64,000 bases of DNA from contig CANCLV010000001.1 in the NCBI GenBank assembly GCA_947378905.1, positions 8,556 through 72,555 on the forward strand, read 5' to 3'. The notes beneath the pieces are model-generated. The model did not search any database. It saw only the letters and a list, made by a program, of their open reading frames with translations, and was not told the DNA's origin. Both the position numbers and the translations under genes were made by a program. The stretch's first letter is position 1. Each line of letters starts with the position of its first letter. Positions 1,532-32,858 of this stretch are shown piece by piece. The stretch is from Opitutia bacterium. GTDB lineage: Bacteria > Verrucomicrobiota > Verrucomicrobiia > Opitutales > UBA953.

Positions 1532-2548
1532 TTAGTCGCGACCGCTCCAGCGGGAGGCGTTGCCTAAAATTTTACCAGTACCATTTACCACGGCACAGAG
1601 AGGATCTTCGGCGATAATGACGGGAAGCCCAGTGGCTTCGGAGATAGCACGATCGATGCGACGGATCAGAGCTCCGCCACCAGCAATCACGATACCACGG
1701 TCGACTAAGTCAGCAGAAAGTTCAGGAGGAATACGTTCCAATGAGCCTTTAATGGCTTCAATGATTTGATTAATATTATCTGCCATCGCTTCACGTACTT
1801 CTTGAGAAGTGAGGTGGAGAGAGCGGGGGAGACCAGTGACGGAGTCACGACCACGTACTTCGTAAGTCATCTCTTGTTCTAAAGCATAAGCAGAACCGAT
1901 TTTAATCTTAATTTCTTCTGCGGTGCGCTCACCGATGATGAGATTATATGAATTCTTAATATACTTAATAATCGCCGAATCAAATTCGTCACCACCGACG
2001 CGAATGGAGCGTGCGTGTACAATGCCACCGAGTGAGATCACAGCGACTTCAGTGGTACCGCCACCGATATCGACAATCATCGATGCCATTGGCTCTTCGA
2101 CAGGTAAGCCTACACCGATTGCGGAGGCAACAGGTTCAGGAATGGTAATCACATCATCAGCACCGGCGCGATACGCGGAGTCCATCACGGCGCGACGTTC
2201 AACTGCGGTGATACCGTAAGGAACGGCAACGACGACGGTGAGATTTGAGAAAATAGATTTACGAGCTACTTTACCGATGAAGTAGCGAAGCATGTGTTCG
2301 CTGATTTCGAAGTCGGCGATCACACCATCTTTCATCGGACGCAGCGCTTGGATATCACCAGGAGTACGACCAAGCATCATCTTCGCTTCATTACCAACAG
2401 CGATTGGCTTGCGAGTGCTGGTACGAATCGCGACCACGGAAGGTTCTCTAAGGACAACGCCTCGGTCTTTCAGAAAGACCAAAGTATTGGCGGTACCTAG
2501 GTCGATACCAATGGCTTGGGTGAATAGCCCTGGGAAACGCTTAAACAT
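1532..2548 (-). CDS. mreB: Rod shape-determining actin homologue MreB
   Basis: Actin-fold motifs are present: IGIDLGTANTLV, DIGGGTTEVAVISLGG and IAGGGALIRRID. Length is 338 aa. Confidence 0.97.
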   Translation of the reverse strand: MFKRFPGLFTQAIGIDLGTANTLVFLKDRGVVLREPSVVAIRTSTRKPIAVGNEAKMMLGRTPGDIQALRPMKDGVIADFEISEHMLRYFIGKVARKSIFSNLTVVVAVPYGITAVERRAVMDSAYRAGADDVITIPEPVASAIGVGLPVEEPMASMIVDIGGGTTEVAVISLGGIVHARSIRVGGDEFDSAIIKYIKNSYNLIIGERTAEEIKIKIGSAYALEQEMTYEVRGRDSVTGLPRSLHLTSQEVREAMADNINQIIEAIKGSLERIPPELSADLVDRGIVIAGGGALIRRIDRAISEATGLPVIIAEDPLCAVVNGTGKILGNASRWSGRD

Positions 2549-2597: not shown

Positions 2598-2764
2598 ACC
2601 CCTTTTAGCCAAAGGCTTAAGTCAGTCGCAAGCGACTTCCCTCAATTTTATTGGGTATAATCGCTGCCTCAGTCGTCCAACTCTCAGTGAATCACTTGCC
2701 GTTCAAGGTCACGGGCTGGAGGGTTGACACTGTGCGAGACTTTCGGAATTTTTAGACTGTTGTA

Positions 2765-3628
2765 ATGTTAAAACGTTTTCTGATTTTAGGTATTCTGATT
2801 CACGTAACGTGTGTGCCGAGTCAACTCTTTGGACAAGGGTCTGGCTATCAAATATTCATAGACATGCCTTCCGGTCGTAAGATAACGCTAGACGTTGAAG
2901 CAACTGATTCATTTCAAAATATTAGAGAAAAAATGCAGGACAAGACGGGTATAGCACCTATTTATCAGTCGATATATTTTGGCTATGGCTACCTGAATCA
3001 ATCGTTGCTTGATCCTCTAGGAATCTTGGCAGATTTCAATATAGGTCGCGAGGCGCCTGGTAATTTATATTTTAATACATCAGCGGATACATTCTTGAAT
3101 GCTACAAGTTATAATTCATCTCTACGTGAGTACACCCTACTTAATGGGTATGATGTTCAGTTAGATCACGTGAACCGATTTGTGAATTCGGTCTTAACTA
3201 ACACGACAGTCGCCGAGGACACGAATGGCGTTCTTCAGCCAATCTCACTTTCAGGTGCACTACTATTTTCTCCGGCCGAACAGAATTCTTATACCTTTAA
3301 TATTTTTTTAGCCAATCCTACTTCAAGTTTATCTAACTTTAGTGATGCAACAGGGTTTACGGTTCCGTTAGTCGTCACCTCGCAAGGTATTATCGGATTT
3401 AACTCAGCCGATATAACTGTGAACGTGGACGCATCAAGCTTCGCCAATAGCCTTGGCGGTGGATCATTTAGCTTGGTTCAGCCGAATAGCAGAACGCTGA
3501 GCCTGCAGTTTACACCAGGTACGATTCCGGAGCCTTCAACCTACGGATTCTGTGGCTTTGGCGCGATCGGACTGATGTTTTTCTTACGTCGGAAGAAATT
3601 AAAACAGTCCACAAGCATTAGCGCCTAA
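2765..3628 (+). CDS. Secreted PEP-CTERM-anchored protein with N-terminal ubiquitin-like (beta-grasp) domain
   Basis: Signal peptide MLKRFLILGILIHVTCVPSQLFG. Residues about 28-103 align by eye to ubiquitin (QIF..G..ITL.VE..D...N...K.QDK.GI.P..Q...F....L ... L.D.NI..E). The middle is Asn/Ser/Thr-rich. The C-terminus IPEPSTYGFCGFGAIGLMFFLRRKK is a PEP-CTERM sorting signal. Confidence 0.8.
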   Translation: MLKRFLILGILIHVTCVPSQLFGQGSGYQIFIDMPSGRKITLDVEATDSFQNIREKMQDKTGIAPIYQSIYFGYGYLNQSLLDPLGILADFNIGREAPGNLYFNTSADTFLNATSYNSSLREYTLLNGYDVQLDHVNRFVNSVLTNTTVAEDTNGVLQPISLSGALLFSPAEQNSYTFNIFLANPTSSLSNFSDATGFTVPLVVTSQGIIGFNSADITVNVDASSFANSLGGGSFSLVQPNSRTLSLQFTPGTIPEPSTYGFCGFGAIGLMFFLRRKKLKQSTSISA

Positions 3629-4564
3629 AATCGCTAATCCTGCGGCAATACGGTACCAGGCGAAGGGTTTAAGTCCGCGACGCATAATAAATCCAATCAT
3701 CCATTTTACTGAGATGAATGCAGCCACCGCGGCGATTACGAGTCCAAGGCTAGCATTACCAATGGGATAAACTTGTTTGAGGGCTGGTCCGAGTGAGTAC
3801 ATTTTGTAAACTGAAGCAGCGGACAAAATCACAAAGCCAACGAGGAATGAAAACTCTGTGGCGACAGCAGAAGACAATCCGGCCCAGCGTCCGCCTAAGA
3901 TGGTGGCCAGTGATCGGCTAGTTCCAGGGATGAGCGCAACGCATTGGCAGAGTCCAATCCACAGCGCCTGCTGGGGTGATACATTTAATTCACCACTATT
4001 GTCGGAAGGAATTTTAGGTAATTTTTCTTCTGCTAAAAAGATTACAAATCCGCCTATGATTAAGGCAAGAGCGACAATGGTTACATCGAAAGGTATGTAA
4101 TCCTTGATAATAAAACCTAAGATAGCTGCGGGTAAAAAGGCGATGAGGATAGCAAGCGCTAAGAAAATCGAACTGCGATTACCTTTCAAGATCCCGACTA
4201 CAACCGACTTCATTCGTTGATAAAAAATAAAAAGCACGGCGAGAATCGCACCGAGTTGAATGATGACAATATAGTCATCGGCGATTTTCTCGAGCGAGAG
4301 TCTGCGACCTTTTCGATCCACGACACTGGACTCCACCAGGGTTGAGCTCTTATCAACGCCCATGACCGCATCACTAATAATCATGTGACCGGTTGACGAT
4401 ACGGGCAGATATTCCGTTACGCCTTCGACCAGTCCAGTGACTACGGCACGTTGGGTACTGAATTGATTACGTACTTCTTCTGCCGTTTTATCTGGGCTGA
4501 TTTGCTCGCCTGCAAATAAGCCTAAGGGACTGACCAGTAATAAAAATAGTAGGGTACGAGGCAT
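3599..4564 (-). CDS. uppP: Undecaprenyl-diphosphate phosphatase (BacA/UppP family)
   Basis: VTEYLPVSSTGHMII matches the UppP E-x-LPVSSxGH motif, and LIPGTSRSLATILGG matches the PGxSRSG motif. The protein is polytopic, with an N-terminal extension and one internal insertion relative to typical ~270-aa UppP. Confidence 0.85.
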   Translation of the reverse strand: MPRTLLFLLLVSPLGLFAGEQISPDKTAEEVRNQFSTQRAVVTGLVEGVTEYLPVSSTGHMIISDAVMGVDKSSTLVESSVVDRKGRRLSLEKIADDYIVIIQLGAILAVLFIFYQRMKSVVVGILKGNRSSIFLALAILIAFLPAAILGFIIKDYIPFDVTIVALALIIGGFVIFLAEEKLPKIPSDNSGELNVSPQQALWIGLCQCVALIPGTSRSLATILGGRWAGLSSAVATEFSFLVGFVILSAASVYKMYSLGPALKQVYPIGNASLGLVIAAVAAFISVKWMIGFIMRRGLKPFAWYRIAAGLAILGANACGLF

Positions 4565-6778: not shown

Positions 6779-6812
6779 ACTTAGGCTAGGGTATTGCCAA
6801 CGGCCCTTTCCT

Positions 6813-6842
6813 TTGTCTTTCTCTATCAACACTTACTAATTT
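6813..6842 (+). promoter_or_regulatory. Candidate promoter of the HU-family gene (leaderless-type spacing)
   Basis: TTGTCT (6813-6818), an 18-nt spacer, then TAATTT (6837-6842), which ends 6 nt before the ATG at 6849. Confidence 0.3.
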
Positions 6843-6848
6843 TTATCC

Positions 6849-7172
6849 ATGTCTGACAATCTTACGAAACGGCAAATAGTCCTGAAAATTTTTACGGATA
6901 AAGGCTACCCACAAAAGCATATTCGCGATAGCGTCCAGTTAACCTTGGATGCGATCACTGAAGCGTTGCTCGCTGGCCGTGATGTTGAGTTGCGTAACTT
7001 CGGCGTTTTCCAAGTTCAGGTTCGTAAAAGTCGTATCGGTCGTAATCCCAATCGTCCTGAAACCGATGTCGTGATTCCCAAGCGCGCCGTGATTAAATTT
7101 AAAGCCGGTAAAGAACTTAAAGCTAAATTGAAGTCTTATAATATTGATAAGACTGACACCAAGCCCGAGTAA
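6849..7172 (+). CDS. HU/IHF family DNA-binding protein
   Basis: RNFGVFQVQVRKSRIGRNPNRPETDVVIPKRAVIKFKAGKELK matches the HU/IHF beta-arm signature (GFG.F....R..R.GRNP.T.E...I....V..FK.G..LK). Confidence 0.9.
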   Translation: MSDNLTKRQIVLKIFTDKGYPQKHIRDSVQLTLDAITEALLAGRDVELRNFGVFQVQVRKSRIGRNPNRPETDVVIPKRAVIKFKAGKELKAKLKSYNIDKTDTKPE

Positions 7173-7182
7173 GTTTTTATCC

Positions 7183-8520
7183 ATGGCAGATATTCGCTCA
7201 TTACCAGGTTTTAGAGAATTTTATCCTGAAGACAGAGCGATTCAAAATCATCTCTTCACGGTCTGGCGTCAGGCCTGCCGTCGCTATGGTTTTCGTGAAT
7301 GGGAATCTCCTGTGCTCGAGCCTTTAGAACTCTTCACCGAAAAATCGGGCGAGGAGATTGTTAAACAGTTATTCAACTTTGAAGACAAAGGTGGTCGCCA
7401 GGTGAGTCTTCGTCCCGAAATGACACCTTCCCTGGCTCGTATGGTCGGAGCTCGTGCCAACGGAATGCCTAAACCGATTCGTTGGTTTTCCATCGGAGAG
7501 AATTTTCGTTACGAAAAACCACAAAAGGGTCGTCTGAGATCTTTTTACCAGCTCAACGCCGATTTACTCGGTGAAGCGAGTGCCACGGCTGACGCTGAAC
7601 TTATCGCACTCTGCGCTGATTGTTTGTTAGGTTTTGGTCTGACCCAAAAAGACTTCTCAATTCGTATTTCTGACCGTCAACTTTGGTTTAAATTTTTAGA
7701 GAGCGAAAAGGTTCCCGCTGAGAAAATTACTGGCGTCTTAGGCGTGGTTGATAAGTTAGAGCGTTCCAGCCCCGGCGATTTATTAGAAGCTATGAAGGCT
7801 GTACTGGCTGGTACTGAATGTGATCCCGCTAAGTTGCTGGCATCCGTAAAAGCTTTCGCAGCCATTCGTTCACTGAATGAATTGGAAGTCATTGCCCAGA
7901 AGGATGCAGCAATGGCTGCACGTTTGGTAGAATGGAAACAATTATTAGATTCTATTAAGGCCCTCGGTTTTTCGGAATGTGTATCGATTGATTTAACCAT
8001 CGTCCGTGGTTTGGCTTATTACACTGGCTTTGTTTTTGAGGCTTTTGAAGTCGGTGCCGAAGCTCGTGCGCTCGCGGGCGGCGGACGTTACGACACGCTG
8101 GTTAAGAAATTAGGCGGTCCCGATTTACCCGCCGCTGGTTTCGGTATGGGTGATGTTACCGTTCGTGACTTATTAGAGTCCAAAAATCTTTTACCCAAAT
8201 ATTCTGACGGCCCGAACTTCTATGTCATGATTCTGGGCGATGATGCTCGCCATGTTGCTCTTGAGGATATTGCGGCACTTCGTCGCGCCGGCTTCAGGGT
8301 CGAATACAATTTACGCGACGGTAAATTCCCTAAATTAATTCAAAGCGCTGAAACCATCGGTGCTCAATATGCTTTGGTTTATGGTGGTGAAGAAGTAGCT
8401 AAGGGAATCACCAAGGTAAGAAGTTTAACCGATCGCACCGAAGCGACTATTCCTCGCACCGACATCATTCCCGCACTGCGTGCTGTATTAGAAGAAGGCA
8501 TGCGTGCCATTCTTCCTTAA
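7183..8520 (+). CDS. hisS: Histidine--tRNA ligase
   Basis: Class II aaRS motifs (LRPEMTPSLARMV, FRYEKPQKGRLRSFYQ, AGGGRYD) plus a C-terminal anticodon-binding domain. The start is set at ATG 7183 (MADIRSLPGF) because the upstream part of the ORF (from 7144) overlaps the HU gene. Confidence 0.95.
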   Translation: MADIRSLPGFREFYPEDRAIQNHLFTVWRQACRRYGFREWESPVLEPLELFTEKSGEEIVKQLFNFEDKGGRQVSLRPEMTPSLARMVGARANGMPKPIRWFSIGENFRYEKPQKGRLRSFYQLNADLLGEASATADAELIALCADCLLGFGLTQKDFSIRISDRQLWFKFLESEKVPAEKITGVLGVVDKLERSSPGDLLEAMKAVLAGTECDPAKLLASVKAFAAIRSLNELEVIAQKDAAMAARLVEWKQLLDSIKALGFSECVSIDLTIVRGLAYYTGFVFEAFEVGAEARALAGGGRYDTLVKKLGGPDLPAAGFGMGDVTVRDLLESKNLLPKYSDGPNFYVMILGDDARHVALEDIAALRRAGFRVEYNLRDGKFPKLIQSAETIGAQYALVYGGEEVAKGITKVRSLTDRTEATIPRTDIIPALRAVLEEGMRAILP

Positions 8521-11159: not shown

Positions 11160-11936
11160 ATGAAAGTTGCACGTCATGTTATCGAAGCCCGTCGTGAGGC
11201 AATTGCAAAGCTACTCGGAAATGTTGGCTATGTCCCTGTCCTCGAAATCTGTAAGCAGTTTAATGTTTCCGAAGCTACTGCGCGTCGCGATCTCACTGAA
11301 TTAGAAAGTCAGCGTCGCTTAACTAGAACTCATGGTGGCGCTTTATCTGACTTCAATAGAAACTTCCCGCCATTAGATTCACGTAAAACTGAGGAAGCTG
11401 AAGCTAAGCAAAAAGTCGGACTCAAGGCTGCAAGCTTTGTTAAGGCTGGTATGACCATCTACATAGATTCTGGTTCGACCGTTCATTGTGCTGCTGAAGC
11501 GATTGTCGCTGCCCGTATTCCTGACTTACAAATTATCACGACCAGTATTCCAACGGCTCAGTTAGTTTGTACATTACCAGGAGTTGAAGTTTATATCCCT
11601 GGCGGATTGTATCTTGCGCAACAAGCCATGGTCGCTGGTGATCGCACGTTAGAGGAAGTTGCCCGTTGGAATTTTGATTTAGCATTACTCGGTGCTCAAG
11701 GTATCGACGAAAACGGACTCTGGAATTCTCAGCGCGATATTTCACATCAACAACGTGAAGTGATTCGCCGTAGTGATTTGACGCTTATTTGCATGCACAA
11801 GTCCAAGCTTGGGCGTACCGGTCCAAGTGCTGTGACTCGAGATATTGCCCCTCTGTATTTAGTTGTTGATGCTGATGCCGCTATGGTCGCTAAGGCCAAA
11901 GTAAAAATGCCAGCCCAGCACATCATTACCGCCTAA
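11160..11936 (+). CDS. DeoR/GlpR family transcriptional repressor (likely regulator of the downstream sugar operon)
   Basis: N-terminal wHTH (ICKQFNVSEATARRDLTELE) and a C-terminal DeoR sugar-phosphate sensor domain (IYIDSGSTV, ...LLGAQGID). Confidence 0.9.
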   Translation: MKVARHVIEARREAIAKLLGNVGYVPVLEICKQFNVSEATARRDLTELESQRRLTRTHGGALSDFNRNFPPLDSRKTEEAEAKQKVGLKAASFVKAGMTIYIDSGSTVHCAAEAIVAARIPDLQIITTSIPTAQLVCTLPGVEVYIPGGLYLAQQAMVAGDRTLEEVARWNFDLALLGAQGIDENGLWNSQRDISHQQREVIRRSDLTLICMHKSKLGRTGPSAVTRDIAPLYLVVDADAAMVAKAKVKMPAQHIITA

Positions 11937-11956
11937 TTTTATCACCCACCCTACTC

Positions 11957-13570
11957 GTGAAAAAAAATATTATCTACTTGGTCGCTAACGGCGATCTTCG
12001 TGCTTCCGCTAATCAGAAGTGTGAAAAAGAACAATTAGCGATGGAGGCGAAATTAATTTCGGCCCTCCGTGTGCTCGGTTACACCGTCAAGCGTGCTCAC
12101 GGATATCGCTCCGATGTTAAGCACAGCTTCATCGATTCTCAAAAATACGGCATCCAAGTATTTAGCAAGATCCCTCAAGATGCTCCCGTCATTGTCGCTG
12201 AAGCGGTCTGGCAATATTCTCACCACATTCTTCCAGGTTTATTAACTCATACTGGCCCCATTTTAACTCTGGCTAATTGGTCAGGCGTTTGGCCAGGTCT
12301 CGTCGGCATGTTGAATCTCAATGGTTCACTCCTCAAGGCCGGCGTTAAATTCTCCTCGTTATGGAGTGAGGATTTCACTGATGAGAAATTTAAAAAAGGT
12401 TTAGTAGCATGGCTCAAGAAAGGTGAAGTCAAACACGCTACACCTCATGTGAAGTCCTTGAGTCGTCCGCTTGCAGGTGCTGACGCCTCTGTCGGTCGTC
12501 GCTTCGCACAAGATTTCCGTTCGCGTAAGGCTATCATGGGTGTCTTCGACGAAGGTTGTATGGGTATGTACAACGCCATTATTCCTGACGAAATCATCCA
12601 TCCTACCGGAGTTTATAAAGAACGTCTCAGTCAGTCTTCTTTATACGCCGAAATGTGGAAAGTAAAAGATGCCGAAGCGCAGAAGGCTTTAAATTGGCTA
12701 CTTAAAAAAGGTATGAAGTTTGCTTGGGGTAAGAATGAAAAAACTGAACTCACCAAAGCACAGACTCTCACTCAATTGAAAATGTACATCGCCGCTGTGC
12801 GCATTGCTGATGACTTCGGCTGTGCGACCATCGGTATTCAGTATCAACAAGGTCTGAAGGATCTCGCCCCTGCCTCGGATCTCGTCGAAGGCCTCTTGAA
12901 TAACCGCGAGCGCCCTCCTGTCTTTGATCGCACTAACAAGCGTGAACTATTTAAAGGTGAAGCCCTCCCTCACTTTAACGAAGTCGATGAGTGTGCCGGT
13001 CTCGATGGATTAATCACTTATCACTTGTGGAAGAAATTAGGATTCGAACCTGAAAACACTCTGCACGATTTACGTTGGGGTCGTCAGTATGTCGGTCCAT
13101 CCGGCAAGAAGATGATTGATGAGTATGTTTGGGTCTTCTTAATTTCTGGTGCTGCTCCCGTTCAACATTTCATCGGCGGATATAAAGGCACGGTTTCTGA
13201 AAGACAGCCAGCCATGTATTTCCGTTTAGGCGGTGGTACGGTTAAAGGTGTGTCCAAACCAGGTTGGATTGTTTGGTCCCGTATTTTTGTTCGTGATAAC
13301 GAACTCCACGCTGACTTGGGTATCGCTGAGGTCATTGCTTTACCTCAGGCTGAAACCGAAGATCGCTGGCAGAAATCCACTCCGCAGTGGCCAATCATGC
13401 ACACCGTGCTCTCGGGCATTTCTCGCGATGAAATGATGGCCCGCCACCCTTCTAACCACATCCAAGTGGTCTATACACCCTCCCCTGCCGGCGCAAAACG
13501 CGGATTATTGGCTAAAGCCGCCGCTTTCCAAGAATTAGGCATCAAGGTGTCCCTTTGCGGTAAGTACTAA
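11957..13570 (+). CDS. L-fucose/L-arabinose isomerase superfamily sugar isomerase (putative 6-deoxyhexose isomerase)
   Basis: GTG start, 537 aa. The N-terminus (IIYLVANGDLR...) and C-terminal region (WPIMHTVLSGISRDEMMARHPSNHIQVVY) resemble FucI/AraA-type isomerases by eye. It occupies the isomerase slot of the operon. The family assignment needs an HMM check. Confidence 0.6.
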   Translation: MKKNIIYLVANGDLRASANQKCEKEQLAMEAKLISALRVLGYTVKRAHGYRSDVKHSFIDSQKYGIQVFSKIPQDAPVIVAEAVWQYSHHILPGLLTHTGPILTLANWSGVWPGLVGMLNLNGSLLKAGVKFSSLWSEDFTDEKFKKGLVAWLKKGEVKHATPHVKSLSRPLAGADASVGRRFAQDFRSRKAIMGVFDEGCMGMYNAIIPDEIIHPTGVYKERLSQSSLYAEMWKVKDAEAQKALNWLLKKGMKFAWGKNEKTELTKAQTLTQLKMYIAAVRIADDFGCATIGIQYQQGLKDLAPASDLVEGLLNNRERPPVFDRTNKRELFKGEALPHFNEVDECAGLDGLITYHLWKKLGFEPENTLHDLRWGRQYVGPSGKKMIDEYVWVFLISGAAPVQHFIGGYKGTVSERQPAMYFRLGGGTVKGVSKPGWIVWSRIFVRDNELHADLGIAEVIALPQAETEDRWQKSTPQWPIMHTVLSGISRDEMMARHPSNHIQVVYTPSPAGAKRGLLAKAAAFQELGIKVSLCGKY

Positions 13571-13571
13571 A

Positions 13572-14333
13572 ATGAGTACCGAAGCTAAGGATTTAAATCC
13601 ACTCTTAGAGCTGTCGCACCAAATGGGTTCGCCCACGTTGCGTATGGCAATTTTGGGTGAAGGTAATTCATCCATGAAACTGAATGATGAAACCTTTGCG
13701 GTAAAAGCATCCGGTACCAATCTCGAAAAACTGCAGACAAGTGACGTCGCCGTTTGTCGCTTCGATAAACTTCTACCACTGTTTAAAGAGAATGACTTAA
13801 CTGATGCCGCGATTGATAAAGCATTGTTTGATTCGCGCGTAGATTCAAATGCCAAGAAGCCTTCGATTGAAGCGCTCTTTCACGCATGGCTCTTAACTCT
13901 GCCCGGTGTCAACTGCGTCGGTCACGTTCACGCCATCGCCGTAAATCAAATTCTCTGCTCTCCACGCGCAAAGGAATTTGCGACGCAACGACTTTTTCCT
14001 GACGAGGTTGTACTTTGCGGAACTGAATCCGTTTTAGTACCTTACGTTGATCCAGGTTTAAGTTTAGCTAAAGCGATTCGCGATGAAACGCTGTTGTATA
14101 TTCGTCGCACCGGACGTGAACCCAAAGTTATTCTGTTGAAGAATCACGGAATCATCGCCGTGGGTTCGAGTCCCAAAGCGGTCATGGGCACATTGCTCAT
14201 GGCTGAAAAGTCTGCGCAAATTTTTGTTGGTGCCGCCACCCTGGGTGGTCCCGATTTCATGTCAGCTGGACAAGTCGAACGTATTGCGGGTCGCCCTGAC
14301 GAACACTACCGCCAAAAAATGCTTGGACAATAA
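13572..14333 (+). CDS. Class II aldolase/adducin-domain protein (stand-alone paralogue of the RhaE module)
   Basis: GEGNSSMKL..AVKASGTNL and GHVHAIAVN parallel GGGNTSSK..WVKGSGGDL and DHMHPNAII in the N-terminal half of the downstream RhaEW protein. Confidence 0.75.
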   Translation: MSTEAKDLNPLLELSHQMGSPTLRMAILGEGNSSMKLNDETFAVKASGTNLEKLQTSDVAVCRFDKLLPLFKENDLTDAAIDKALFDSRVDSNAKKPSIEALFHAWLLTLPGVNCVGHVHAIAVNQILCSPRAKEFATQRLFPDEVVLCGTESVLVPYVDPGLSLAKAIRDETLLYIRRTGREPKVILLKNHGIIAVGSSPKAVMGTLLMAEKSAQIFVGAATLGGPDFMSAGQVERIAGRPDEHYRQKMLGQ

Positions 14334-15802
14334 TGTCACACTACCTTGCCATTGATTTAGGAGCTGAGTCCGGACGCGTTATCCGTGGTTCACTACGATC
14401 TGGTAAATTGAGCATGACTGAAGTTCACCGTTTTTCTAACGGTGCGATAAAACACAAAGGCACCTTACGCTGGGATTTTCCCCGACTCATTAAAGAAATC
14501 GAAGTCGGTTTACAGAAAGCTGCGAAACTCGGACCAGTAAAATCCATCGGCTGTGACTCTTGGGGCGTAGATTACGTTTTAATCAATCGTGCCGGTGAGA
14601 TCATTGATTTACCTTATTGCTACCGGGACGAGCGCACCGACGCCACTTTTACAGAGATTCAGAAAAAGCTTTCTCCACAAAAGATTTTCAGTGCTACGGG
14701 TATTGGGTCTCTTTCCATCAATACGCTTTATCAGTTATACGCTGATCTCAAAACCCGTCCGAAGGCTTTAAAGAATACCGATAAATTCTTACTCATCGGT
14801 GATGCCGTAAGTTGGAAACTGACTGGAAAAATTCGTGCGGAAGAAACTTTGATATCGGGTAGTCAATTATGGGATACTAGTAAAAATCAATGGGCGTGGC
14901 CCTTGATTGAAAAGCTAAACATTCCGAAACATCTTTTCCCTGAAACCATCCAGCCTGGAAAAGTCATCGCAAAACTTTCACCTGCGTTAGAGAAAAAAAC
15001 TAAACTCAAAAATGTTCAAGTAGTTGCGGTCTGCGCTCATGATACCGCTTCGGCTGTGGCTGCTGTACCAGCGCCTAAGGGAAATCAATGGGCCTATCTT
15101 TCATCAGGAACTTGGTCGCTGCTGGGTGTTGAACTCAATAAGCCCTTGATCAGTGAGGCGGTCCGTAAGGCGAACTTCACTAATGAAATTGGTCATAATC
15201 GTACCACCCGCTTCCTGAAATGTTTAGTAGGACTTTGGATTTTACAGGAATGTCGCCGCGAATGGGTTAAGACGGATAAGAAGCTCGATTATTCAAGCAT
15301 CACTCAACAGGCAGAAAAATCCCCCGAGTTACGTTCTCTCATCAGACCTGATGACAGTCGATTTTCAAAAATGGGAAGTATGGTTAAAAAAGTCCAAGAC
15401 TACTGTCGTGAGACTAAACAACCCATCCCTCAATCTGTCGGTGAAATCACCCGCTGTATTTTGGATTCTTTAGCTCTCCTCTATCGAGCAGAATTAGATG
15501 GCGTTGAAAAACTTACCCGTCGGAAAATTAAACAACTTCATATTGTCGGTGGCGGATGTCGTAATGATGTTTTAAATCAAGCCACCGCGAATGCTACAGG
15601 TCGACTCATTGTAACCGGTCCAGTTGAAGCCACCGCCATGGGAAATATTCTAGTGCAGGCGATGGCGACGAAAGAACTCAAAAATATTGAAGAACTTCGC
15701 CAAGTAGTACGTCGCTCCAATCAATTTAAAACCTTTAAGCCGAAGTCCGCAGCACCCTGGGCTAAGGCCTACTCTATTTTCCAAAAACTTCCTAAATCTT
15801 AA
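14333..15802 (+). CDS. rhaB: Rhamnulokinase (FGGY family)
   Basis: Colinear by eye with E. coli RhaB: AIDLGAESGRV, DSWGVDYVL, YRDERT, NTLYQL, HDTASAV, YLSSGTWSL and LHIVGGGCRNDVLNQ. Confidence 0.85.
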   Translation: MSHYLAIDLGAESGRVIRGSLRSGKLSMTEVHRFSNGAIKHKGTLRWDFPRLIKEIEVGLQKAAKLGPVKSIGCDSWGVDYVLINRAGEIIDLPYCYRDERTDATFTEIQKKLSPQKIFSATGIGSLSINTLYQLYADLKTRPKALKNTDKFLLIGDAVSWKLTGKIRAEETLISGSQLWDTSKNQWAWPLIEKLNIPKHLFPETIQPGKVIAKLSPALEKKTKLKNVQVVAVCAHDTASAVAAVPAPKGNQWAYLSSGTWSLLGVELNKPLISEAVRKANFTNEIGHNRTTRFLKCLVGLWILQECRREWVKTDKKLDYSSITQQAEKSPELRSLIRPDDSRFSKMGSMVKKVQDYCRETKQPIPQSVGEITRCILDSLALLYRAELDGVEKLTRRKIKQLHIVGGGCRNDVLNQATANATGRLIVTGPVEATAMGNILVQAMATKELKNIEELRQVVRRSNQFKTFKPKSAAPWAKAYSIFQKLPKS

Positions 15803-15814
15803 TTATAAAATATC

Positions 15815-18007
15815 ATGTCCTCATTAAAATATGTATCTAACCTTTGGAACGACGCTGAAGTCGCCAAGCTCGATCCAGTCGGACGATTAGTTTATCGTTC
15901 GAACAAGTTGGGAGCCGACCAGCGCATCACCAATACGGGTGGCGGTAATACCTCTTCCAAGACGGCTGAAAAAGATCCGTTATCCGGCAAGAACGTGCCC
16001 GTGCTATGGGTCAAAGGTTCAGGTGGCGATTTACGTACGTCTACTCGCGAGAATTTTTCATCACTCTATCAAGATAAGTTAATCGAGTTACAGACCGTGT
16101 ATGCCGCACGTGCCGACAAGGGATTAAAGTCACAGGCTGAAGATGACATGGTCGCGATGTACAACCACACGACGTTTAATTTAAATCCTCGAGCCTCATC
16201 GATTGATACCCCTCTGCACAGTTTCTTACCTGGCAAGCATGTCGACCACATGCACCCTAATGCGATTATTTCAATTGCTGCTTCTAAGAATTGCGAAGCA
16301 CTGACGCAAAAAATCTTCGGAGGTAAAATGGCGTATGTAAAATGGATGCGCCCAGGTTTCGAATTAGGATTAGCGATGCAGGAAATCGCCCGCAAAGAAC
16401 CTTCAACCAAGGCCATCATGATGGGGCAACACGGATTCATTTCATGGGCTGATGATGATAAAGCCTGTTACGAACTTACCCTCTCCATGATTGAACAAGC
16501 TGCCGCTTATATCGAATCGCAGTATCAATCCAAAGGTGGCGATGCGAAAGCTTTCGGTGGCGCTAAATATCAAACGCTCGATGTGGCTAAACGAAATGAA
16601 GTCTTGGCAAAAATTTTACCCTGGCTCCGTGGTCAAGTCTCACAAGAAAAGCGTTTTATTGGAACGGTTCAGGATGATGAAAAGATTTTACGTTTCGTTA
16701 ATTCGAAAGATGCACCTCGCTTAGCAGAATTAGGCACATCTTGCCCTGATCACTTCCTGCGCACGAAAATCAAACCTCTGTACATCGATTGGAATCCTCA
16801 AGCCGAGGATGTCGCCACACTTAAGTCTAAACTTCAAGCTGGTTTAGATAACTACCGTAAAGATTACGCTAAATATTATAATGCATGCAAACGTGCGAAT
16901 TCACCAGCAATGCGTGATTCAAATCCTACCGTGGTTCTGATTCCTGGTGTAGGCATGGTGGCTTGGGGTAAAGATAAGTCTGAGTCACGTGTTACGGCAG
17001 AGTTTTATAATTGTGCAGTCGAAGTCATGCGCGGAGCGGAGGCGATTGATCAGTATATTGCCCTGCCCCAACAAGAAGCTTTCGATATCGAATACTGGTT
17101 ATTGGAAGAAGCTAAATTAAAGCGCATGCCTGCGGAGAAAGAATTAGCACGCCAAGTGATAATCGTGGTCGGTGCTGGTTCAGGCATCGGTAAAGAAACC
17201 GCACACCGCTTAGTTAAAGAAGGTGCCCATATCGTTTGCGTGGATAAAAATCTCGAATCGGCCCAAGCGACGGCTAAAGAAATTACTGATAAGTATGGTA
17301 TTGGTATCGGTGTTGCTGGTACTAGATTATCTAATTGCGGTCCGGCCATTGGCTTAGCTGGTGATATCATGGATCGTAACTCCATTCGTCGCATGCTTGA
17401 TGAAGTCGCTTTAGCCTACGGTGGCTTTGATTCTATCTGCGTTACCGCCGGTATCTTCGTATCACCTGATACTTCTGGACATATTCCAGATGACAAGTGG
17501 GCTCTCACATTTGCATTAAATGTAACCGGTAGTTACTTGGTGGCTGATGAAGCTTTCAAGACCTGGAAGGAACAAGGACTCCGTGGAAACATGGTTCTTA
17601 CGACTAGCGCGAATGCCGTTGTGGCGAAGAAGGGTTCAGTTGCCTACGACACATCCAAAGCCGCCGCAAATCACCTCGTACGTGAACTAGCGATGGAATT
17701 ATCTCCACTCATTCGTGTTAATGGTGTTGCTCCTGCAACGGTTGTTCAAGGTTCGGCGATGTTCCCACGCGATCGCGTAATCGCATCACTCGCCAAATAT
17801 AATATCCCATATACTGACGATGAAGCCTCGGAGTCTCTGACAACAAAACTCTCTAAGTTCTATGCAGAAAGAACTTTAACTAAGAATCCGATTACTCCAG
17901 CCGACCAGGCGGAGGCGTATTTCTTATTAGTCTCTAATCGACTCAATAAAACCACCGGCCAGGTGATTACAGTCGACGGTGGCCTGCACGAGGCTTTCTT
18001 AAGATAG
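15815..18007 (+). CDS. rhaEW: Bifunctional rhamnulose-1-phosphate aldolase / lactaldehyde dehydrogenase (RhaEW type: class II aldolase + SDR)
   Basis: The N-terminus LVYRSNKLGADQRITNTGGGNTSSK is typical of this bifunctional family. The C-terminal SDR has VVGAGSGIGKETA and a YDTSKAA catalytic motif. Length 730 aa. Confidence 0.85.
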   Translation: MSSLKYVSNLWNDAEVAKLDPVGRLVYRSNKLGADQRITNTGGGNTSSKTAEKDPLSGKNVPVLWVKGSGGDLRTSTRENFSSLYQDKLIELQTVYAARADKGLKSQAEDDMVAMYNHTTFNLNPRASSIDTPLHSFLPGKHVDHMHPNAIISIAASKNCEALTQKIFGGKMAYVKWMRPGFELGLAMQEIARKEPSTKAIMMGQHGFISWADDDKACYELTLSMIEQAAAYIESQYQSKGGDAKAFGGAKYQTLDVAKRNEVLAKILPWLRGQVSQEKRFIGTVQDDEKILRFVNSKDAPRLAELGTSCPDHFLRTKIKPLYIDWNPQAEDVATLKSKLQAGLDNYRKDYAKYYNACKRANSPAMRDSNPTVVLIPGVGMVAWGKDKSESRVTAEFYNCAVEVMRGAEAIDQYIALPQQEAFDIEYWLLEEAKLKRMPAEKELARQVIIVVGAGSGIGKETAHRLVKEGAHIVCVDKNLESAQATAKEITDKYGIGIGVAGTRLSNCGPAIGLAGDIMDRNSIRRMLDEVALAYGGFDSICVTAGIFVSPDTSGHIPDDKWALTFALNVTGSYLVADEAFKTWKEQGLRGNMVLTTSANAVVAKKGSVAYDTSKAAANHLVRELAMELSPLIRVNGVAPATVVQGSAMFPRDRVIASLAKYNIPYTDDEASESLTTKLSKFYAERTLTKNPITPADQAEAYFLLVSNRLNKTTGQVITVDGGLHEAFLR

Positions 18008-18010
18008 ACT

Positions 18011-18739
18011 GTGCGCGTTTCCCTATTCATTCCCTGCTTCGTTGACCAACTTACCCCACAGGTAGGTTTGGCGACGGTGAAGGTTTTGAAAAAACTGGGA
18101 CAAGAGGTTGAATTTATCCCCACACAAACTTGTTGTGGTCAGCCCTCATATAATTCTGGTCAATGGGAAATTGCCAAAGAAGGTGCCATCCGCACTCTAG
18201 AAGTCTTTAGAGACGCCGAGGTGGTTGTCGGGCCTTCAGGCTCATGCGTAGCTATGATCAAGAAATTTTATCCTGAACTTTTACACGGTACAAAATACGA
18301 GCAAGAGGCTAAAAATTTATCGCAACGCACTTTTGAATTTTCTGATTTCTTGGTCACAAAACTTAAAACGATCGATATCGGTGCGTCCTTAAATAAGAAA
18401 GTGACCTACCATGATGGTTGCCACGCTCTGCGTGAATTAAGACTTAAAGAGGAGCCACGTAAATTATTACGTGCGGTTAAAGGTTTAGAATTAATTGAAA
18501 CGGAAGAATCGGAATCCTGCTGTGGCTTTGGTGGTTTATTTTCGGTGAAGTTTCCGATGATTTCGACAGCGATGGTGCAGGTGAAAGCCAGTGCCCTCTC
18601 ACGAACAGGTGCAGACTATATCGTGTCCTCAGACCCCTCTTGCTTACTTCAGATTGGCGGCTGGTTGTCACGCGAAGGTAAAGTTATCAGACCTCTGCAT
18701 ATCGCGGAGCTCTTAGCGATGGGGATCGACCATGTCTGA
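18011..18739 (+). CDS. lutA: L-lactate utilisation protein LutA (CCG-domain Fe-S oxidoreductase)
   Basis: GTG start. Two cysteine-rich CCG repeats (CCGQP, CCGFGG). It is followed by lutB and lutC with overlapping junctions. Confidence 0.9.
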   Translation: MRVSLFIPCFVDQLTPQVGLATVKVLKKLGQEVEFIPTQTCCGQPSYNSGQWEIAKEGAIRTLEVFRDAEVVVGPSGSCVAMIKKFYPELLHGTKYEQEAKNLSQRTFEFSDFLVTKLKTIDIGASLNKKVTYHDGCHALRELRLKEEPRKLLRAVKGLELIETEESESCCGFGGLFSVKFPMISTAMVQVKASALSRTGADYIVSSDPSCLLQIGGWLSREGKVIRPLHIAELLAMGIDHV

Positions 18740-20123
18740 TTCAAAATCCATTTTCATAAAAGAATCCACACTCACGAGTGCTGATGGTGATCAACGTCAG
18801 TTTATTCGTACGGCGCTGGGTGGATATTACAAAAACAGAGATTTGTATAAAGCCAAGTATCGTGACTGGGAACTGGCTCGCGATGCTGCTTCGCTCGCTA
18901 AATGGTCGGCCGTTAATAATTTAGCCGAAGTCTTAGAAAAGTTTGTTGCCAAGTTTGAATCCAATGGTGGCAAGGTTCACTGGGCTCGCGATGCCGCTGA
19001 AGCTCGTCAAATTATTTTAGATTTAGTAGCCAAAGCGAATGCCAAGGCCGTGATTAAATCGAAGTGTATGACCACGGAAGAGATTCATCTTAACGATGCT
19101 CTCGAGAAAGCTGGTTATGGTGTCGTGGAGAGTGATTTGGGTGAGTTCATCCAGCAATTACGGGGTGAAGCTCCCTACCACTTCGTCTTCCCCTGTATGC
19201 ATTTAAAGCGTGAGGCGATTAGCGAATTATTTACGAAACATCTCGGGACTGCGCCGACGGATAGTCCAGAAGAACTCACGATGATTGCACGTAGGCATCT
19301 ACGTAAACTTTATATCACAGCCGATGTGGGTATCACCGGTGCGAATTTCTTAGTCGCTGATACTGGTCAAATTTCAATTACCGAAAATGAAGGTAATGCC
19401 CGTTTAACGGCGGCGATGCCCCGAGTACATATTGCACTGTCGGGAATCGAAAAAGTAATTAATTCAATCGATGATCTCTCGGTCTTGTTGCCGATGTTAG
19501 CAACGGCGGGTGCCGGTCAACCAATGACCTGTTACAATACACTCTACGCTGGTCCTAAAAAACCAGGTGAGCGTGATGGGCCAGAAGAGTTTCATTTAGT
19601 CTTATTAGATAACGCCCGCACTCAATTACTAGCAGATCCAGAGCAACGTGATGCGCTTCACTGCATTCGTTGTGGTGCCTGTCTCAATGTGTGTCCCATT
19701 TTTAAAAATATTGGTGGGCATGCTTACGGCACAACTTACCAAGGGCCTATTGGCTCTGTCATTACACCTCATTTACGGGGTCTTAAGGATTGGAATCACC
19801 TTTCGGGTGCTTCTTCACTCTGTGGTGCATGTACAGAGGCATGCCCCGTGCGCATTGATTTGCATCATCACTTACTGCAAAACCGTCGTAATGCCGCGAA
19901 GGTCGTACCTAATTTATTCGACCGAGTTTTTCATGGTGGATTCAATTTTGTCATTAAACGTCCGGCACTCTTTTCTTTTGGTGGAAAAGTATTTCGAAAA
20001 ACATTTGGATTATTAAAACACCTACCCATTCCTTATTTAGGTACATGGCTCAAGTCGCGTGACTTACCTGCGATTCCTGCAAAATCATTTAGAGAACAAT
20101 GGAAGGATATTAAAAATGTCTGA
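18732..20123 (+). CDS. lutB: L-lactate utilisation protein LutB (4Fe-4S, LUD domain)
   Basis: Two ferredoxin-type clusters (CIRCGACLNVCP and CGACTEACP) plus a LUD domain. The ATGTCTGA junction overlaps lutA. Confidence 0.9.
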   Translation: MSDSKSIFIKESTLTSADGDQRQFIRTALGGYYKNRDLYKAKYRDWELARDAASLAKWSAVNNLAEVLEKFVAKFESNGGKVHWARDAAEARQIILDLVAKANAKAVIKSKCMTTEEIHLNDALEKAGYGVVESDLGEFIQQLRGEAPYHFVFPCMHLKREAISELFTKHLGTAPTDSPEELTMIARRHLRKLYITADVGITGANFLVADTGQISITENEGNARLTAAMPRVHIALSGIEKVINSIDDLSVLLPMLATAGAGQPMTCYNTLYAGPKKPGERDGPEEFHLVLLDNARTQLLADPEQRDALHCIRCGACLNVCPIFKNIGGHAYGTTYQGPIGSVITPHLRGLKDWNHLSGASSLCGACTEACPVRIDLHHHLLQNRRNAAKVVPNLFDRVFHGGFNFVIKRPALFSFGGKVFRKTFGLLKHLPIPYLGTWLKSRDLPAIPAKSFREQWKDIKNV

Positions 20124-20784
20124 AGCACGCAAAGAAATCATGGGACGGATTCGTGAGGCTCTTAAAATGCCTTCACCTAAACCGCATTTGAAGGGCGAAT
20201 CCGCCAAGGTTACGGGCAAAGCTTGGTTGCCTGAGGTGGGTGATACTCAGGCGGAAACCATGGCGCTACTTTCCGATAATTTAGCCAAATTAAAGGCGCA
20301 CTTTCACCCTGTTAAAAATTTAGATCAAGCGATTTCCTTGGTGAAAGATTTAGCACAAAAGAAGAACTGGAAGAACATTGCCTATCATAAGAATGAATTA
20401 GTGACGCCCGTGGCTCAAGCCATTGAGGGTAACGCTTGGGCTGTAGAGGACGCATTTACGAAAGACAAACTCGAGGCAAGCGATGTCGGGTTAACCTCCT
20501 GTGTGTCCATTGTAGCTCAGTTTGGAGCTATCCTGGTCTCAAGTGAGACATCGGGAGGTCGTGGATTATCTATTTTGCCACCTGTGCACGTCGTTATTGC
20601 TAAGGCCGACCAAGTTGTACCCGATTTAGCTGCCTGTTTTGAACAAATTAATCTTCAATTTGGAGGCAAAATGCCGAGTATGCTCTCTTTTATCACTGGT
20701 CCTAGTCGTACGGGTGATATCGAGCGCATCTTGGTTCTAGGTGCCCACGGTCCGAAAGAATTATACCTAATATTAATCGGATAA
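20116..20784 (+). CDS. lutC: L-lactate utilisation protein LutC (LUD domain)
   Basis: The start is set at ATG 20116 (MSEARKEIMGRIREAL), which overlaps the lutB stop as ATGTCTGA. The LUD-family C-terminus is ITGPSRTGDIE. Confidence 0.85.
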   Translation: MSEARKEIMGRIREALKMPSPKPHLKGESAKVTGKAWLPEVGDTQAETMALLSDNLAKLKAHFHPVKNLDQAISLVKDLAQKKNWKNIAYHKNELVTPVAQAIEGNAWAVEDAFTKDKLEASDVGLTSCVSIVAQFGAILVSSETSGGRGLSILPPVHVVIAKADQVVPDLAACFEQINLQFGGKMPSMLSFITGPSRTGDIERILVLGAHGPKELYLILIG

Positions 20785-20886
20785 ATCTTCAGGGTCGGTA
20801 TTTAATTTTTGTGGTTCGAAATACGTCAAATAGTTGTGATGTGGCATTGACACTAAGGTGCTTGTCATCAAATCAGACTGTTCCGC

Positions 20887-32463: not shown

Positions 32464-32857
32464 TGGGTTTCTCTTTGGGTTCGAACGGTTTTAAAAACGC
32501 ATCTTTAAAATCGTATATGTTTACGAAGTCCTCAATTTGATCTTCGGCCGAACGTCCAAAAAGCCCAGTATCTATGATGTTAAATACGATATTACCAACA
32601 TCCACACTCTTCTTGATGCCCCAATTGTTTAATAAGGCATAAGAAAGTGGACCATAAGTTTCTAAAGTGTGTAAGCGGAATCCTTCTAGGAGTTGTTTGC
32701 CTGTTACGTGACGATTAGTTTTCTTGCTACCCTTCTTTTCTTCGCCGTGAACTTGTTTTTGAGCGGCATCTAATGCCATTCTTACTAAGTGATAAGACTG
32801 TGGGCTGTAGCGTGGGTCTTTTTCGTGACAGAGTTTAATCGCTTCTTCAAAATTCAT
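32453..32857 (-). CDS. Conserved hypothetical protein (about 134 aa)
   Basis: I prefer the start at ATG 32857 (MNFEEAIKL), one nt after the hisC stop. The longer ORF-track start (32911) would overlap hisC by 53 nt. No recognised catalytic motif. Confidence 0.55.
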   Translation of the reverse strand: MNFEEAIKLCHEKDPRYSPQSYHLVRMALDAAQKQVHGEEKKGSKKTNRHVTGKQLLEGFRLHTLETYGPLSYALLNNWGIKKSVDVGNIVFNIIDTGLFGRSAEDQIEDFVNIYDFKDAFLKPFEPKEKPTKP

Positions 32858-32858
32858 A

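Follow-up and report, generated by a model that had tools for sequence, protein, structure and literature searches.

An accessory gene of freshwater Opitutales encodes a ubiquitin-family domain joined to a predicted PEP-CTERM surface-sorting cassette

Results

A ubiquitin-family domain in a verrucomicrobial protein

We describe a gene at positions 2765 to 3628 (forward strand) of a 64,000-nucleotide stretch of DNA from an Opitutia bacterium (assembly GCA_947378905.1, contig CANCLV010000001.1, positions 8,556 to 72,555), referred to here as the window. The gene codes for a 287-residue protein that joins a ubiquitin-like (Ubl) domain to a PEP-CTERM sorting signal, and is accessory in freshwater Opitutales. 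We think it fairly probable that this Ubl-PEP-CTERM protein is exported, with a eukaryote-type ubiquitin head on a stalk and PEP-CTERM cassette, and that the head serves in strain-specific recognition or binding under diversifying, frequency-dependent selection. This reading draws on observations made here of domain identities, accessory status, allele cassettes, lateral exchange, a relative on a mobile island, and the clustering of variation.

The open reading frame (ORF) is complete and, from the ORF list and its translation, is exactly as described in the initial annotation of this DNA. A search of 5.8 billion protein clusters yielded 17 full-length relatives with 47 to 100% identity. The window protein is P0018 (in NCBI/ENA records), and P0001 differs from it by T147M; P-numbers denote protein clusters and L-numbers genomic loci, all sequences coming from metagenomes and metagenome-assembled genomes (MAGs).

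Profile searches, phmmer, and structural modeling all point to a ubiquitin-family beta-grasp domain at residues 28 to 103 (positions 2846 to 3073). The initial annotation had aligned this region with ubiquitin by eye, and on recounting, its 21 identities over the 50 ungapped N-terminal positions are exact, with five identities among ten positions where LADFNIGREA aligns with LSDYNIQKES; a gapped local alignment gives 26 of 64 identities (41%). Searched with phmmer against PDB sequences, residues 26 to 100 match single ubiquitin chains at E-values of about 1e-9 to 1e-8, which supports the view that the domain is closer to true ubiquitin than ThiS/MoaD-type proteins usually are. The Pfam profile PF00240 scores the window protein at 24.0 bits (E = 3.3e-5), narrowly under the gathering cutoff of 25.4, and orthologs and relatives lie clearly above it, with precomputed matches for P0002 to P0010 and P0012 to P0017, and scores of 64.0 and 62.7 bits for the distant relatives P0026 and P0027, respectively. 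An AlphaFold model of residues 25 to 105 has the element order beta-beta-alpha-beta-beta-3(10)-beta of a beta-grasp fold, and the top 50 PDB matches returned by Foldseek for this model are nearly all ubiquitin or engineered ubiquitin variants (TM 0.76 to 0.84, probability 1.00), with moderate model confidence (pLDDT of 62 to 78 within the domain in the isolated and whole-protein models). All of the Ubl lineages are nearer to ubiquitin than to NEDD8 or SUMO1, using reference sequences of which that of ubiquitin agrees with the PDB alignments. Judged by sequence and model, residues 28 to 103 are best regarded as a true ubiquitin-family domain that is homologous to ubiquitin proper, with a similarity far above chance.

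As first annotated, the protein has no C-terminal LRGG tail. There is no LRLRGG or diglycine sequence at the end of the domain, which passes straight into ...NLYFNTSADTFLNATSY, and degenerate tail remnants are found in relatives only (P0015, ...LVLFRG; P0026, ...LRFKEGG). The positions of K48 and K63 were also correctly described as not lysine: K63 is replaced by Arg, and the K48 position falls inside a window-specific four-residue insertion. The recognition patch L8/I44/H68/V70 is unconserved, with L8 replaced by Pro and I44 by Tyr in the window protein; across the 17 clusters, position 44 is Y, V, F, G, N, S, or L and position 8 is P, E, T, D, or V, and the patch together with K48 and K63 makes up the most variable columns of the family. 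Window ORFs of 150 or more amino acids, four of which match no family, were scanned with Pfam and NCBIfam and yielded no E1, E2, JAB, or deubiquitinase (DUB) gene, in agreement with the initial annotation. Because there is neither a diglycine tail nor an E1 or E2, the head would not be conjugatable.

These properties bear on whether the head is a eukaryote-directed mimic that contacts ubiquitin-binding proteins in grazing protists or in algal partners and influences phagosome fate or attachment, an explanation we regard as improbable. Such a role might be expected of the near-canonical alleles, notably P0017, which is 65% identical to ubiquitin without gaps and retains both K48 and K63 by alignment reading, and P0026, which is 68% identical and has the residual ...LRFKEGG; moreover, every lineage is nearer to ubiquitin than to the other lineages, as if the ancestral surface had been retained for some time, and the Bacteroides fragilis ubiquitin BfUbb engages human E1 in vitro (PMC3352274). 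However, the canonical recognition patch is not conserved over the 17 clusters, the window allele has no conjugatable tail, and the hosts are apparently free-living lake plankton, judging from the MAG sources. An extracellular protein would also be expected, from textbook cell biology, to meet the lumenal side of the phagosome rather than the cytosolic ubiquitin machinery.

Signals for export and sorting

The Ubl domain is preceded by a signal peptide region (residues 1 to 27, positions 2765 to 2845) that consists of MLKR, an 11-residue hydrophobic core (FLILGILIHVT), and CVPSQLFG-QGSG, with a hydrophobic peak centered on residues 7 to 13. It is near-invariant throughout the family alignment, and in relatives the predicted cleavage falls immediately before MQIFV. 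The basic n-region, the hydrophobic core, and the family conservation are consistent with the cleavable signal peptide that had been proposed, and the signal peptidase I site is probably after LFG or shortly thereafter. A lipoprotein was considered and rejected, as C16 lacks a preceding lipobox (…HVT-C). The only other cysteine is C263 in the anchor helix, and the mature ectodomain contains none.

At the other end, residues 251 to 279 (positions 3515 to 3601, with the PEP motif at 3527 to 3535) constitute a predicted PEP-CTERM sorting signal that passes both curated cutoffs, scoring 21.6 bits with PF07589 (cutoff, 20.7) and 17.1 bits with TIGR02595 (cutoff, 16). It reads IPEPSTYGFCGFGAIGLMFFLRRKK, and its tripartite layout, anticipated in the initial annotation, comprises P255-E-P257, a hydrophobic helix with its peak at 267 to 269, and R275-R-K-K278. 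The signal is invariant in all 17 clusters, and the helix (residues about 260 to 275) and the N-terminal segment are the only two hydrophobic segments in the protein. A PEP-CTERM motif search of the window found the Ubl-PEP-CTERM protein as its sole match, and the scanned window ORFs with family matches have housekeeping functions only. Taken together, the profile, structure, and sorting-signal results and the lack of a conjugation tail or conjugation enzymes favor the earlier proposal that the protein would be exported or displayed rather than conjugated.

The region between the Ubl domain and the sorting signal had been described as an Asn/Ser/Thr-rich spacer of about 150 residues with six N-x-S/T sequons. 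The six sequons are present, but the region is not merely a spacer, as the C-terminal 95 to 120 residues or so are a conserved module. Composition-preserving shuffles average 3.9 ± 1.7 sequons, and P for six or more is 0.17; because the count matches the composition expectation, N-glycosylation is unsupported, and we rejected it as a feature of the protein.

The C-terminal anchor cassette and its other carriers

Two parts can be distinguished in this region: a linker or middle region (residues 104 to 155, positions 3074 to 3229) that is recognized in the family alignment and carries the family-specific motifs FLNATSY and GYD-x-QL, and a conserved C-terminal module defined by profile search (residues 156 to 250, positions 3230 to 3514). 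An exhaustive search of 1.84 billion cluster representatives with a profile of residues 104 to 287 found 497 proteins at E ≤ 1e-3, in which about 120 residues ending in PEP-CTERM are placed at the extreme C-terminus of proteins 86 to 2,500 amino acids long. A P[ED]P motif lies within the last 30 or so residues in 119 of the 149 matches examined. Pfam searches of 10 carriers showed six with PATR repeats, one with PEP-CTERM only (P0037), and three Ubl proteins (PF00240 scores of 30.8, 64.0, and 62.7 bits), and a hidden Markov model search of the examined matches revealed a further Ubl carrier, P0101. Among the best 150 matches, the ubiquitin head occurs in five clusters at the 50% identity level. 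The linker part of the profile is matched only by the Ubl-bearing P0016, P0026, and P0027, and by the 737-residue P0164 (from position 15). A scan of metagenome contigs recovered one full-length member only (the P0027 contig), the other 32 loci having the C-terminal cassette alone.

Residues 143 to 278 have weak similarity to the C-terminal halves of PepA (NF033554) and NF038129 proteins, which agrees with a shared preanchor module. The whole-protein AlphaFold model does not resolve the fold of the module, with residues 104 to 287 falling below pLDDT 50, and dN/dS for the module is about 0.2. From these comparisons, the C-terminal 120 residues or so are best described as a generic anchor cassette, on which a ubiquitin head is rare.

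The gene is an accessory insertion between mreB and uppP

The host is, as judged from its genes, an uncultured freshwater member of the Opitutales (Verrucomicrobiota). The HisRS encoded beside the gene is 96 to 98% identical to those of five lake Opitutales/Opitutia MAGs that are GTDB species representatives, and a Planctomycetes/Verrucomicrobia-specific family is represented by one of the window ORFs. In every case with known context, the gene lies in a slot between mreB (1532 to 2548, reverse strand; PF06723), which is transcribed divergently, and uppP/bacA, coding for undecaprenyl-diphosphatase (3599 to 4564, reverse strand; PF02673), which is convergent, and independent assemblies agree on this arrangement.

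The slot is empty in the closest sequenced species. Loci L011 to L014, from the four nearest representatives with loci spanning the slot, encode MreB and MreC proteins that are 99 to 100% and 90 to 93% identical to those of the window, respectively, with an mreB-uppP gap of about 110 bp and no Ubl gene detectable by tblastn. When the window is aligned with L011, L012, and L014, homology ends at about 2606 to 2611 and resumes at 3648, and about 1,036 bp of the window (2612 to 3647, forward strand) correspond to about 94 bp in the empty loci. This accessory segment holds a single gene, preceded by what reads as a 5' untranslated or promoter part (2612 to 2764). Its right edge falls among the final 16 or so codons of uppP. 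Filled and empty genomes have homologous codons here, but these have diverged strongly, more so than the rest of UppP; the reading that the insert had replaced the end of uppP with foreign DNA was rejected, given homologous UppP tails of the same length in both kinds of genome. At their 3' ends, the Ubl gene and uppP overlap convergently by 30 nucleotides (3599 to 3628), and the final residues of the two proteins are encoded on opposite strands of this one shared stretch.

A second, distant clade also carries the gene (L001 to L004, including MAG GCA_947449375.1), with MreC and UppP only 65% and 61% identical to those of the window, and it too has an empty-slot sister species, represented by L020, with a 171-bp gap and an MreC 94% identical to that of carrier L002. 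In more distant clades, the slot contains a Tat-signal oxidoreductase-like gene or another ORF unrelated to the Ubl gene, or is empty, and accessory genes seem to recur at this site. A scan of GTDB species representatives with the family profile gave pattern matches and no family member. We also found no relative in viral contigs, and there is thus no evidence for a phage vehicle.

Some further features of the slot can be noted. The alternative occupant in L015, L023 (4750 to 6445), L026 to L029, L036 to L038, and others, which belong to a more distant Opitutales clade, is a protein of about 459 residues that has a twin-arginine-type leader (…RRSFLR…) and by eye resembles a Gfo/Idh/MocA-type oxidoreductase, and L017 has a different ORF of 250 residues. 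A perfect palindrome, AGTCGC-AA-GCGACT, is located at 2626 to 2639 within the accessory segment, 5' of the gene, and is conserved across the remaining filled loci, where it may act as an operator or have a structural function. An in-frame TAG sits four codons 5' of the ATG at 2765 in the window. Several other alleles have CAG at this position and are annotated with an N-terminal extension of 11 residues or longer (beginning MRDFRNFQTVV); because the window has a TAG where these alleles read through, we take ATG 2765 to be the real start in all of them. A sigma-70 consensus scan around the gene found no promoter-like site, although this consensus is uninformative for a verrucomicrobial promoter. 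The one terminator-like hairpin found by scanning around the gene is within mreB, at the rate expected by chance, and an Rfam scan of the window gave no match.

Alleles are exchanged as ectodomain cassettes and between clades

The divergence of the Ubl gene is out of step with that of its neighbors, and in both directions. Relative to L005, the neighboring proteins are 83 to 100% identical and the Ubl protein only 52%, whereas relative to L002 the neighbors are 52 to 95% identical and the Ubl protein 80%. Sliding nucleotide comparisons localize these differences: against L002, window positions 3235 to 3600 are 90 to 97% identical with flanks at 45 to 86%, while against L005 and L008, identity falls to 37 to 60% at 2780 to 3450 with flanks at about 71 to 99%; against L006, the differences are mainly at 2779 to 2967. 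Synonymous divergence and dN/dS were calculated with a purpose-written Nei-Gojobori script. Between the window and L002, synonymous divergence ranges from 1.3 to saturation in the flanks and is 0.12 to 0.30 in the gene, a pattern that purifying selection alone does not account for and that indicates recent exchange between clades. Between the window and L008, it is 0.2 to 0.5 in the flanks, 0.17 in the signal peptide, 0.24 in the PEP-CTERM region, and 0.84 to 3.0 in the ectodomain; with a diverged ectodomain between flank-like ends, the pattern indicates a swap of exactly the mature ectodomain.

Two types of alleles can be recognized. Type A alleles, to which the window copy belongs, are 41 to 52% identical to ubiquitin and occur with or without an 8- to 10-residue insertion in the beta1-beta2 loop, and type B alleles are 57 to 65% identical to ubiquitin and have a shorter linker. 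The window copy is among the most diverged alleles, with same-locus orthologs reaching 57 to 65% and one relative 68% identity to ubiquitin. Allele type alternates with decreasing relatedness of the flanks to the window, in the order L006 (A), L008 (B), L009 (A), and L005 (B). By these comparisons, the locus holds two old allele classes that are exchanged as mature-ectodomain cassettes between near-invariant ends. Assembly chimerism was rejected as a source of the mosaicism, as the same locus structures are found in independent assemblies (four for P0014 and two for P0011).

Variation is concentrated on the sheet face

The sheet face around L8, I44, H68, and V70 is the main partner-binding surface of ubiquitin. 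Among the 14 type A clusters, columns with an entropy of at least 1 bit, which we define as variable, are at ubiquitin positions 4 to 12, 42 to 46, and 63 to 71, with one elsewhere; expressed as sites, 17 of 34 are variable on the sheet-face segments and 1 of 42 outside them (Fisher P = 8e-7). The helix (23 to 34), the 36 to 41 loop, and the 54 to 61 region are invariant or nearly so. It is because the core and helix are kept and the partner-binding face varies from strain to strain that we read the domain as a recognition or binding head.

For four nucleotide alleles, dN/dS at sheet-face codons is 0.77 to 1.61 and exceeds 1 in four of six pairs; it is 0 to 0.52 in the rest of the Ubl domain, about 0.2 in the C-terminal cassette, and 0.16 or less in neighboring genes. 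Diversifying (positive) selection on the sheet face is suggested by these values and not proven: the sheet-face regions were delimited post hoc, once their variability was known, the counts are small and come from four alleles, the beta1-beta2 loop is gapped, and recombination breaks the simple assumptions behind dN/dS.

A dN/dS near 1 is equally given by relaxed constraint, and the gene might be a selectively neutral passenger, a captured ubiquitin that is drifting and heading to loss. The values for the whole Ubl domain (0.5 to 0.9) fit such a scenario, as do the absence of the gene from the nearest species representatives and all of the GTDB representatives scanned and the score of the window allele just under the Pfam cutoff. 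Nonetheless, we consider neutrality unlikely. The full-length ORFs are intact in all 17 clusters and in four distant lineages, and two allele classes with ectodomain synonymous divergence of 0.84 to 3.0 have persisted without pseudogenization. In type A alleles, fold-determining residues, the helix, and positions 54 to 61 are invariant and change is limited to one face, with constraint evident in the rest of the domain and in the cassette. Recent spread of the gene between clades likewise counts against drift toward loss.

Distant lineages and an integrative island

The distant member P0026 is 68% identical to ubiquitin, and its signal peptide ends immediately before the ubiquitin N-terminus. 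It is located in a segment of about 6.8 kb in L091 (JGI 3300032236, contig Ga0335263_1116772, 1 to 6930) that is bounded by perfect 40-nucleotide direct repeats at 28 to 67 and 6808 to 6847, corresponding to the 5' part of a tRNA-Val gene (6809 to 6880). The segment carries a tyrosine integrase, an excisionase-like helix-turn-helix gene (HTH_17), HTH_36, an IstB-like gene, and three consecutive PEP-CTERM genes, and by its gene content and repeats is an integrative island with surface-protein cargo. The third of the PEP-CTERM genes has 126-nucleotide tandem repeats (2784 to 3161).

Each Ubl lineage is 40 to 68% identical to ubiquitin, while lineages compared with one another are only 26 to 56% identical. 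Gln40 is replaced by Phe, Tyr, or His in all of the lineages except P0101, and P0026 and P0027 also contain the Ubl-specific linker motifs. The greater proximity to ubiquitin than to each other, the replacement of Gln40, and the common linker motifs favor a single event in which a full-length ubiquitin of near-canonical sequence was captured and then diverged fast along independent lineages; more than one capture is also conceivable. A profile of the distant members run against the 5.8-billion-protein collection was flooded with eukaryotic polyubiquitins, and no new family member was legible in the list.

Other features of the window and related records

Elsewhere in the window, a sugar-catabolism cluster follows a DeoR regulator at 11160 to 22656 and includes a 537-residue ORF, a class II aldolase, an FGGY kinase, an aldolase-SDR fusion, LutA/B/C-like lactate utilization genes, and a 589-residue ORF; neither the 537- nor the 589-residue ORF has a Pfam or NCBIfam match. 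In its gene content, the cluster resembles a rhamnose/fucose-type pathway. The hisS gene (7144 to 8520) has a TTG start in the ORF list (458 residues), and orthologs and the gene calls of related loci use an ATG 13 codons downstream (445 residues, MADIRSLPGF…). A 152-residue ORF at 32453 to 32911 on the reverse strand matches TIGR04138 (the Minf_1886 family, a conserved hypothetical of Planctomycetes/Verrucomicrobia) at 128.9 bits and overlaps the 5' end of an aminotransferase gene call at 32859 to 33977.

Several public MAG records (L035, L039, L056, L060, L066, L067, and L071) are titled Akkermansia muciniphila, Klebsiella sp., Enterobacteriaceae, Sphaerochaetaceae, or Bacteroidaceae and encode a HisRS 61 to 80% identical to the Opitutales protein. 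The gene neighborhood is partly preserved as well in L035, L056, and L060, all of which have uppP-trpB, joined by mreCB in L035 and L056. These seven records are probably mislabeled or contaminated bins.

Discussion

We propose that the Ubl-PEP-CTERM protein would be exported by the Sec pathway, that its signal peptide would be removed a few residues before the first ubiquitin strand, and that the C-terminal helix would retain it transiently until an exosortase encoded elsewhere in the genome cleaves at the PEP motif. The protein would then come to lie at the cell surface or within the exopolymer layer, its ubiquitin head forming the outermost part, where selection on the head could be imposed by other organisms, whether phages, grazers, or competing relatives. 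This path follows from the rules of the PEP-CTERM class, in which the signal is tripartite, an N-terminal signal peptide is always present, and an exosortase is always encoded in the genome (Haft et al., PMC3237569). Surface location, exosortase processing, and the kind of selection are what we infer; beyond the caveats on dN/dS given above, three points weigh against the proposal. Confidence in the model of the head is only moderate (pLDDT 65.9), with the stalk (residues 104 to 287) below 50; the signal peptide is called from sequence features alone; and no exosortase is present among the ORFs of at least 150 residues scanned in the 64-kb window.

The closest precedents are the secreted ubiquitins BfUbb and BoUbb of B. 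fragilis and Bacteroides ovatus (PMC3352274, PMC11467351), and in the literature searched, these two species are the only bacterial sources of homologs of eukaryotic ubiquitin (PMC6194340, PMC3352274, PMC11467351). We compared BfUbb with the Ubl-PEP-CTERM protein by its published description. In both systems, a eukaryote-type ubiquitin without a functional diglycine tail would have its N-terminus exposed by Sec signal cleavage, and the gene is confined to a subset of strains, where it occupies a variable slot, shows signs of lateral acquisition, and has no immunity gene next to it. In B. fragilis, the slot holds ubb in 13 of 97 genomes, another gene pair in 73, and nothing in 11, with ubb lacking an immunity gene (PMC5705921). 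Identity to human ubiquitin is 63% for BfUbb (PMC3352274, PMC5705921, PMC11467351), and identity to ubiquitin is 41 to 68% in the family described here. The differences are nonetheless substantial. BfUbb and BoUbb are from gut Bacteroidota rather than freshwater Verrucomicrobiota, and they are free 76-residue proteins with a C-terminal disulfide, whereas the mature protein here has about 260 residues, with a stalk module and a PEP-CTERM anchor, and no disulfide. Here, too, deeply diverged alleles recombine at one locus with variation focused on the I44/L8 face, and neither a peptidyl-prolyl isomerase (PPIase) target nor a ButCD (SusCD-type)/TonB-dependent transporter gene is linked to the slot.

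These parallels raise the question as to whether the Ubl-PEP-CTERM protein is itself a BfUbb-like antibacterial effector, with the head, released by exosortase or other proteolysis or acting on contact, intoxicating related Opitutales that lack the gene. The common origin, with a eukaryote-type ubiquitin preceded by a Sec signal peptide in each case, and the similar population pattern, with a single-gene insert in a slot that is filled, empty, or otherwise occupied, are both in keeping with this, and lateral exchange, like the presence of a relative on a mobile island, is typical of genes for antagonism. A variable face could also track a variable target or importer, much as BfUbb/BoUbb specificity tracks ButCD (PMC11467351). 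However, the C-terminal disulfide that is crucial for BfUbb/BoUbb toxicity (PMC11467351) has no counterpart in a mature ectodomain devoid of cysteine, the protein is an anchored one of about 260 residues rather than a free one of 76, its cassette is otherwise found on repeat-rich surface proteins, and the locus has no linked candidate for a target or an importer. We therefore view effector function as a rather unlikely explanation, and prefer an exported recognition or binding head.

Comparison with other PEP-CTERM proteins suggests where this head would reside. In common with exosortase substrates such as the flocculation protein PepA, the Ubl-PEP-CTERM protein has the PEP motif, transmembrane helix, basic cluster, and signal peptide, arranged as a modular suffix. 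It differs in its ubiquitin passenger, which is undescribed for the class in the literature searched, and in being encoded by a lone accessory insertion between cell wall genes, not in an exopolysaccharide/exosortase locus. We found no paper in the literature searched that links ubiquitin with PEP-CTERM or exosortase; the initial annotation had described the B. fragilis ubiquitin as not linked to PEP-CTERM. Automated annotation has already met the domain, with the JGI source label for P0017 being "ubiquitin." The PATR-repeat proteins (P0030 to P0034 and P0038) have the same module of about 120 residues and PEP-CTERM signal (profile E-values of 1e-11 to 1e-15), and because of this shared C-terminus the two kinds of protein presumably use the same sorting route and have the same surface location. 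The PATR-repeat proteins have long, adhesin-like beta-helical repeats (PF12951), unlike the single 76-residue ubiquitin fold and short linker here.

With the exception of Pup, the beta-grasp fold is also shared with ThiS/MoaD, SAMPs, and the Ubl proteins of bacterial E1-E2-Ubl operons. These systems are cytoplasmic, have a diglycine or equivalent tail, and have E1-like or JAB genes adjacent, none of which applies to the Ubl-PEP-CTERM protein; by sequence it lies much nearer to ubiquitin proper than members of these systems usually do.

A more specific proposal, which we put forward tentatively, is that the family constitutes a natural "ubiquitin-variant library," a surface-displayed binding scaffold with a face reshaped from strain to strain and alleles that are mobile as cassettes or on an island, serving strain-specific recognition in contact-dependent antagonism, kin discrimination, or escape from phages or grazers. 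Engineered ubiquitin variants (UbVs), complexes of which are among the best structural matches to the head, are laboratory-made intracellular inhibitors. The phage-display library that Ernst et al. are said to have described in Science in 2013 reportedly varied positions in the beta1-beta2 region, around residues 42 to 49, and around 62 to 72. The same three segments vary naturally here on a ubiquitin scaffold with an intact core and a diversified surface, although the likeness is one of analogy only. If the proposal is true, extracellular recognition by a system derived from ubiquitin would be a first, as would a described role for a eukaryote-type ubiquitin outside Bacteroides.

What is new is the phylum in which this eukaryote-type bacterial ubiquitin occurs, its architecture and predicted sorting route, and its population genetics, which are undescribed for such proteins. 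The finding indicates that ubiquitin has been captured also in a different phylum and habitat, built into a predicted PEP-CTERM/exosortase route, diversified on its recognition surface, and moved laterally. The presence/absence and allele polymorphisms can be traced in existing lake metagenome time series, and the passenger and cassette provide a pair for studying exosortase sorting, for which substrates and destination are poorly defined. The family also offers a natural experiment in the extent to which the ubiquitin scaffold can be resurfaced, and would be a second, independent case from which to ask why bacteria export ubiquitin.

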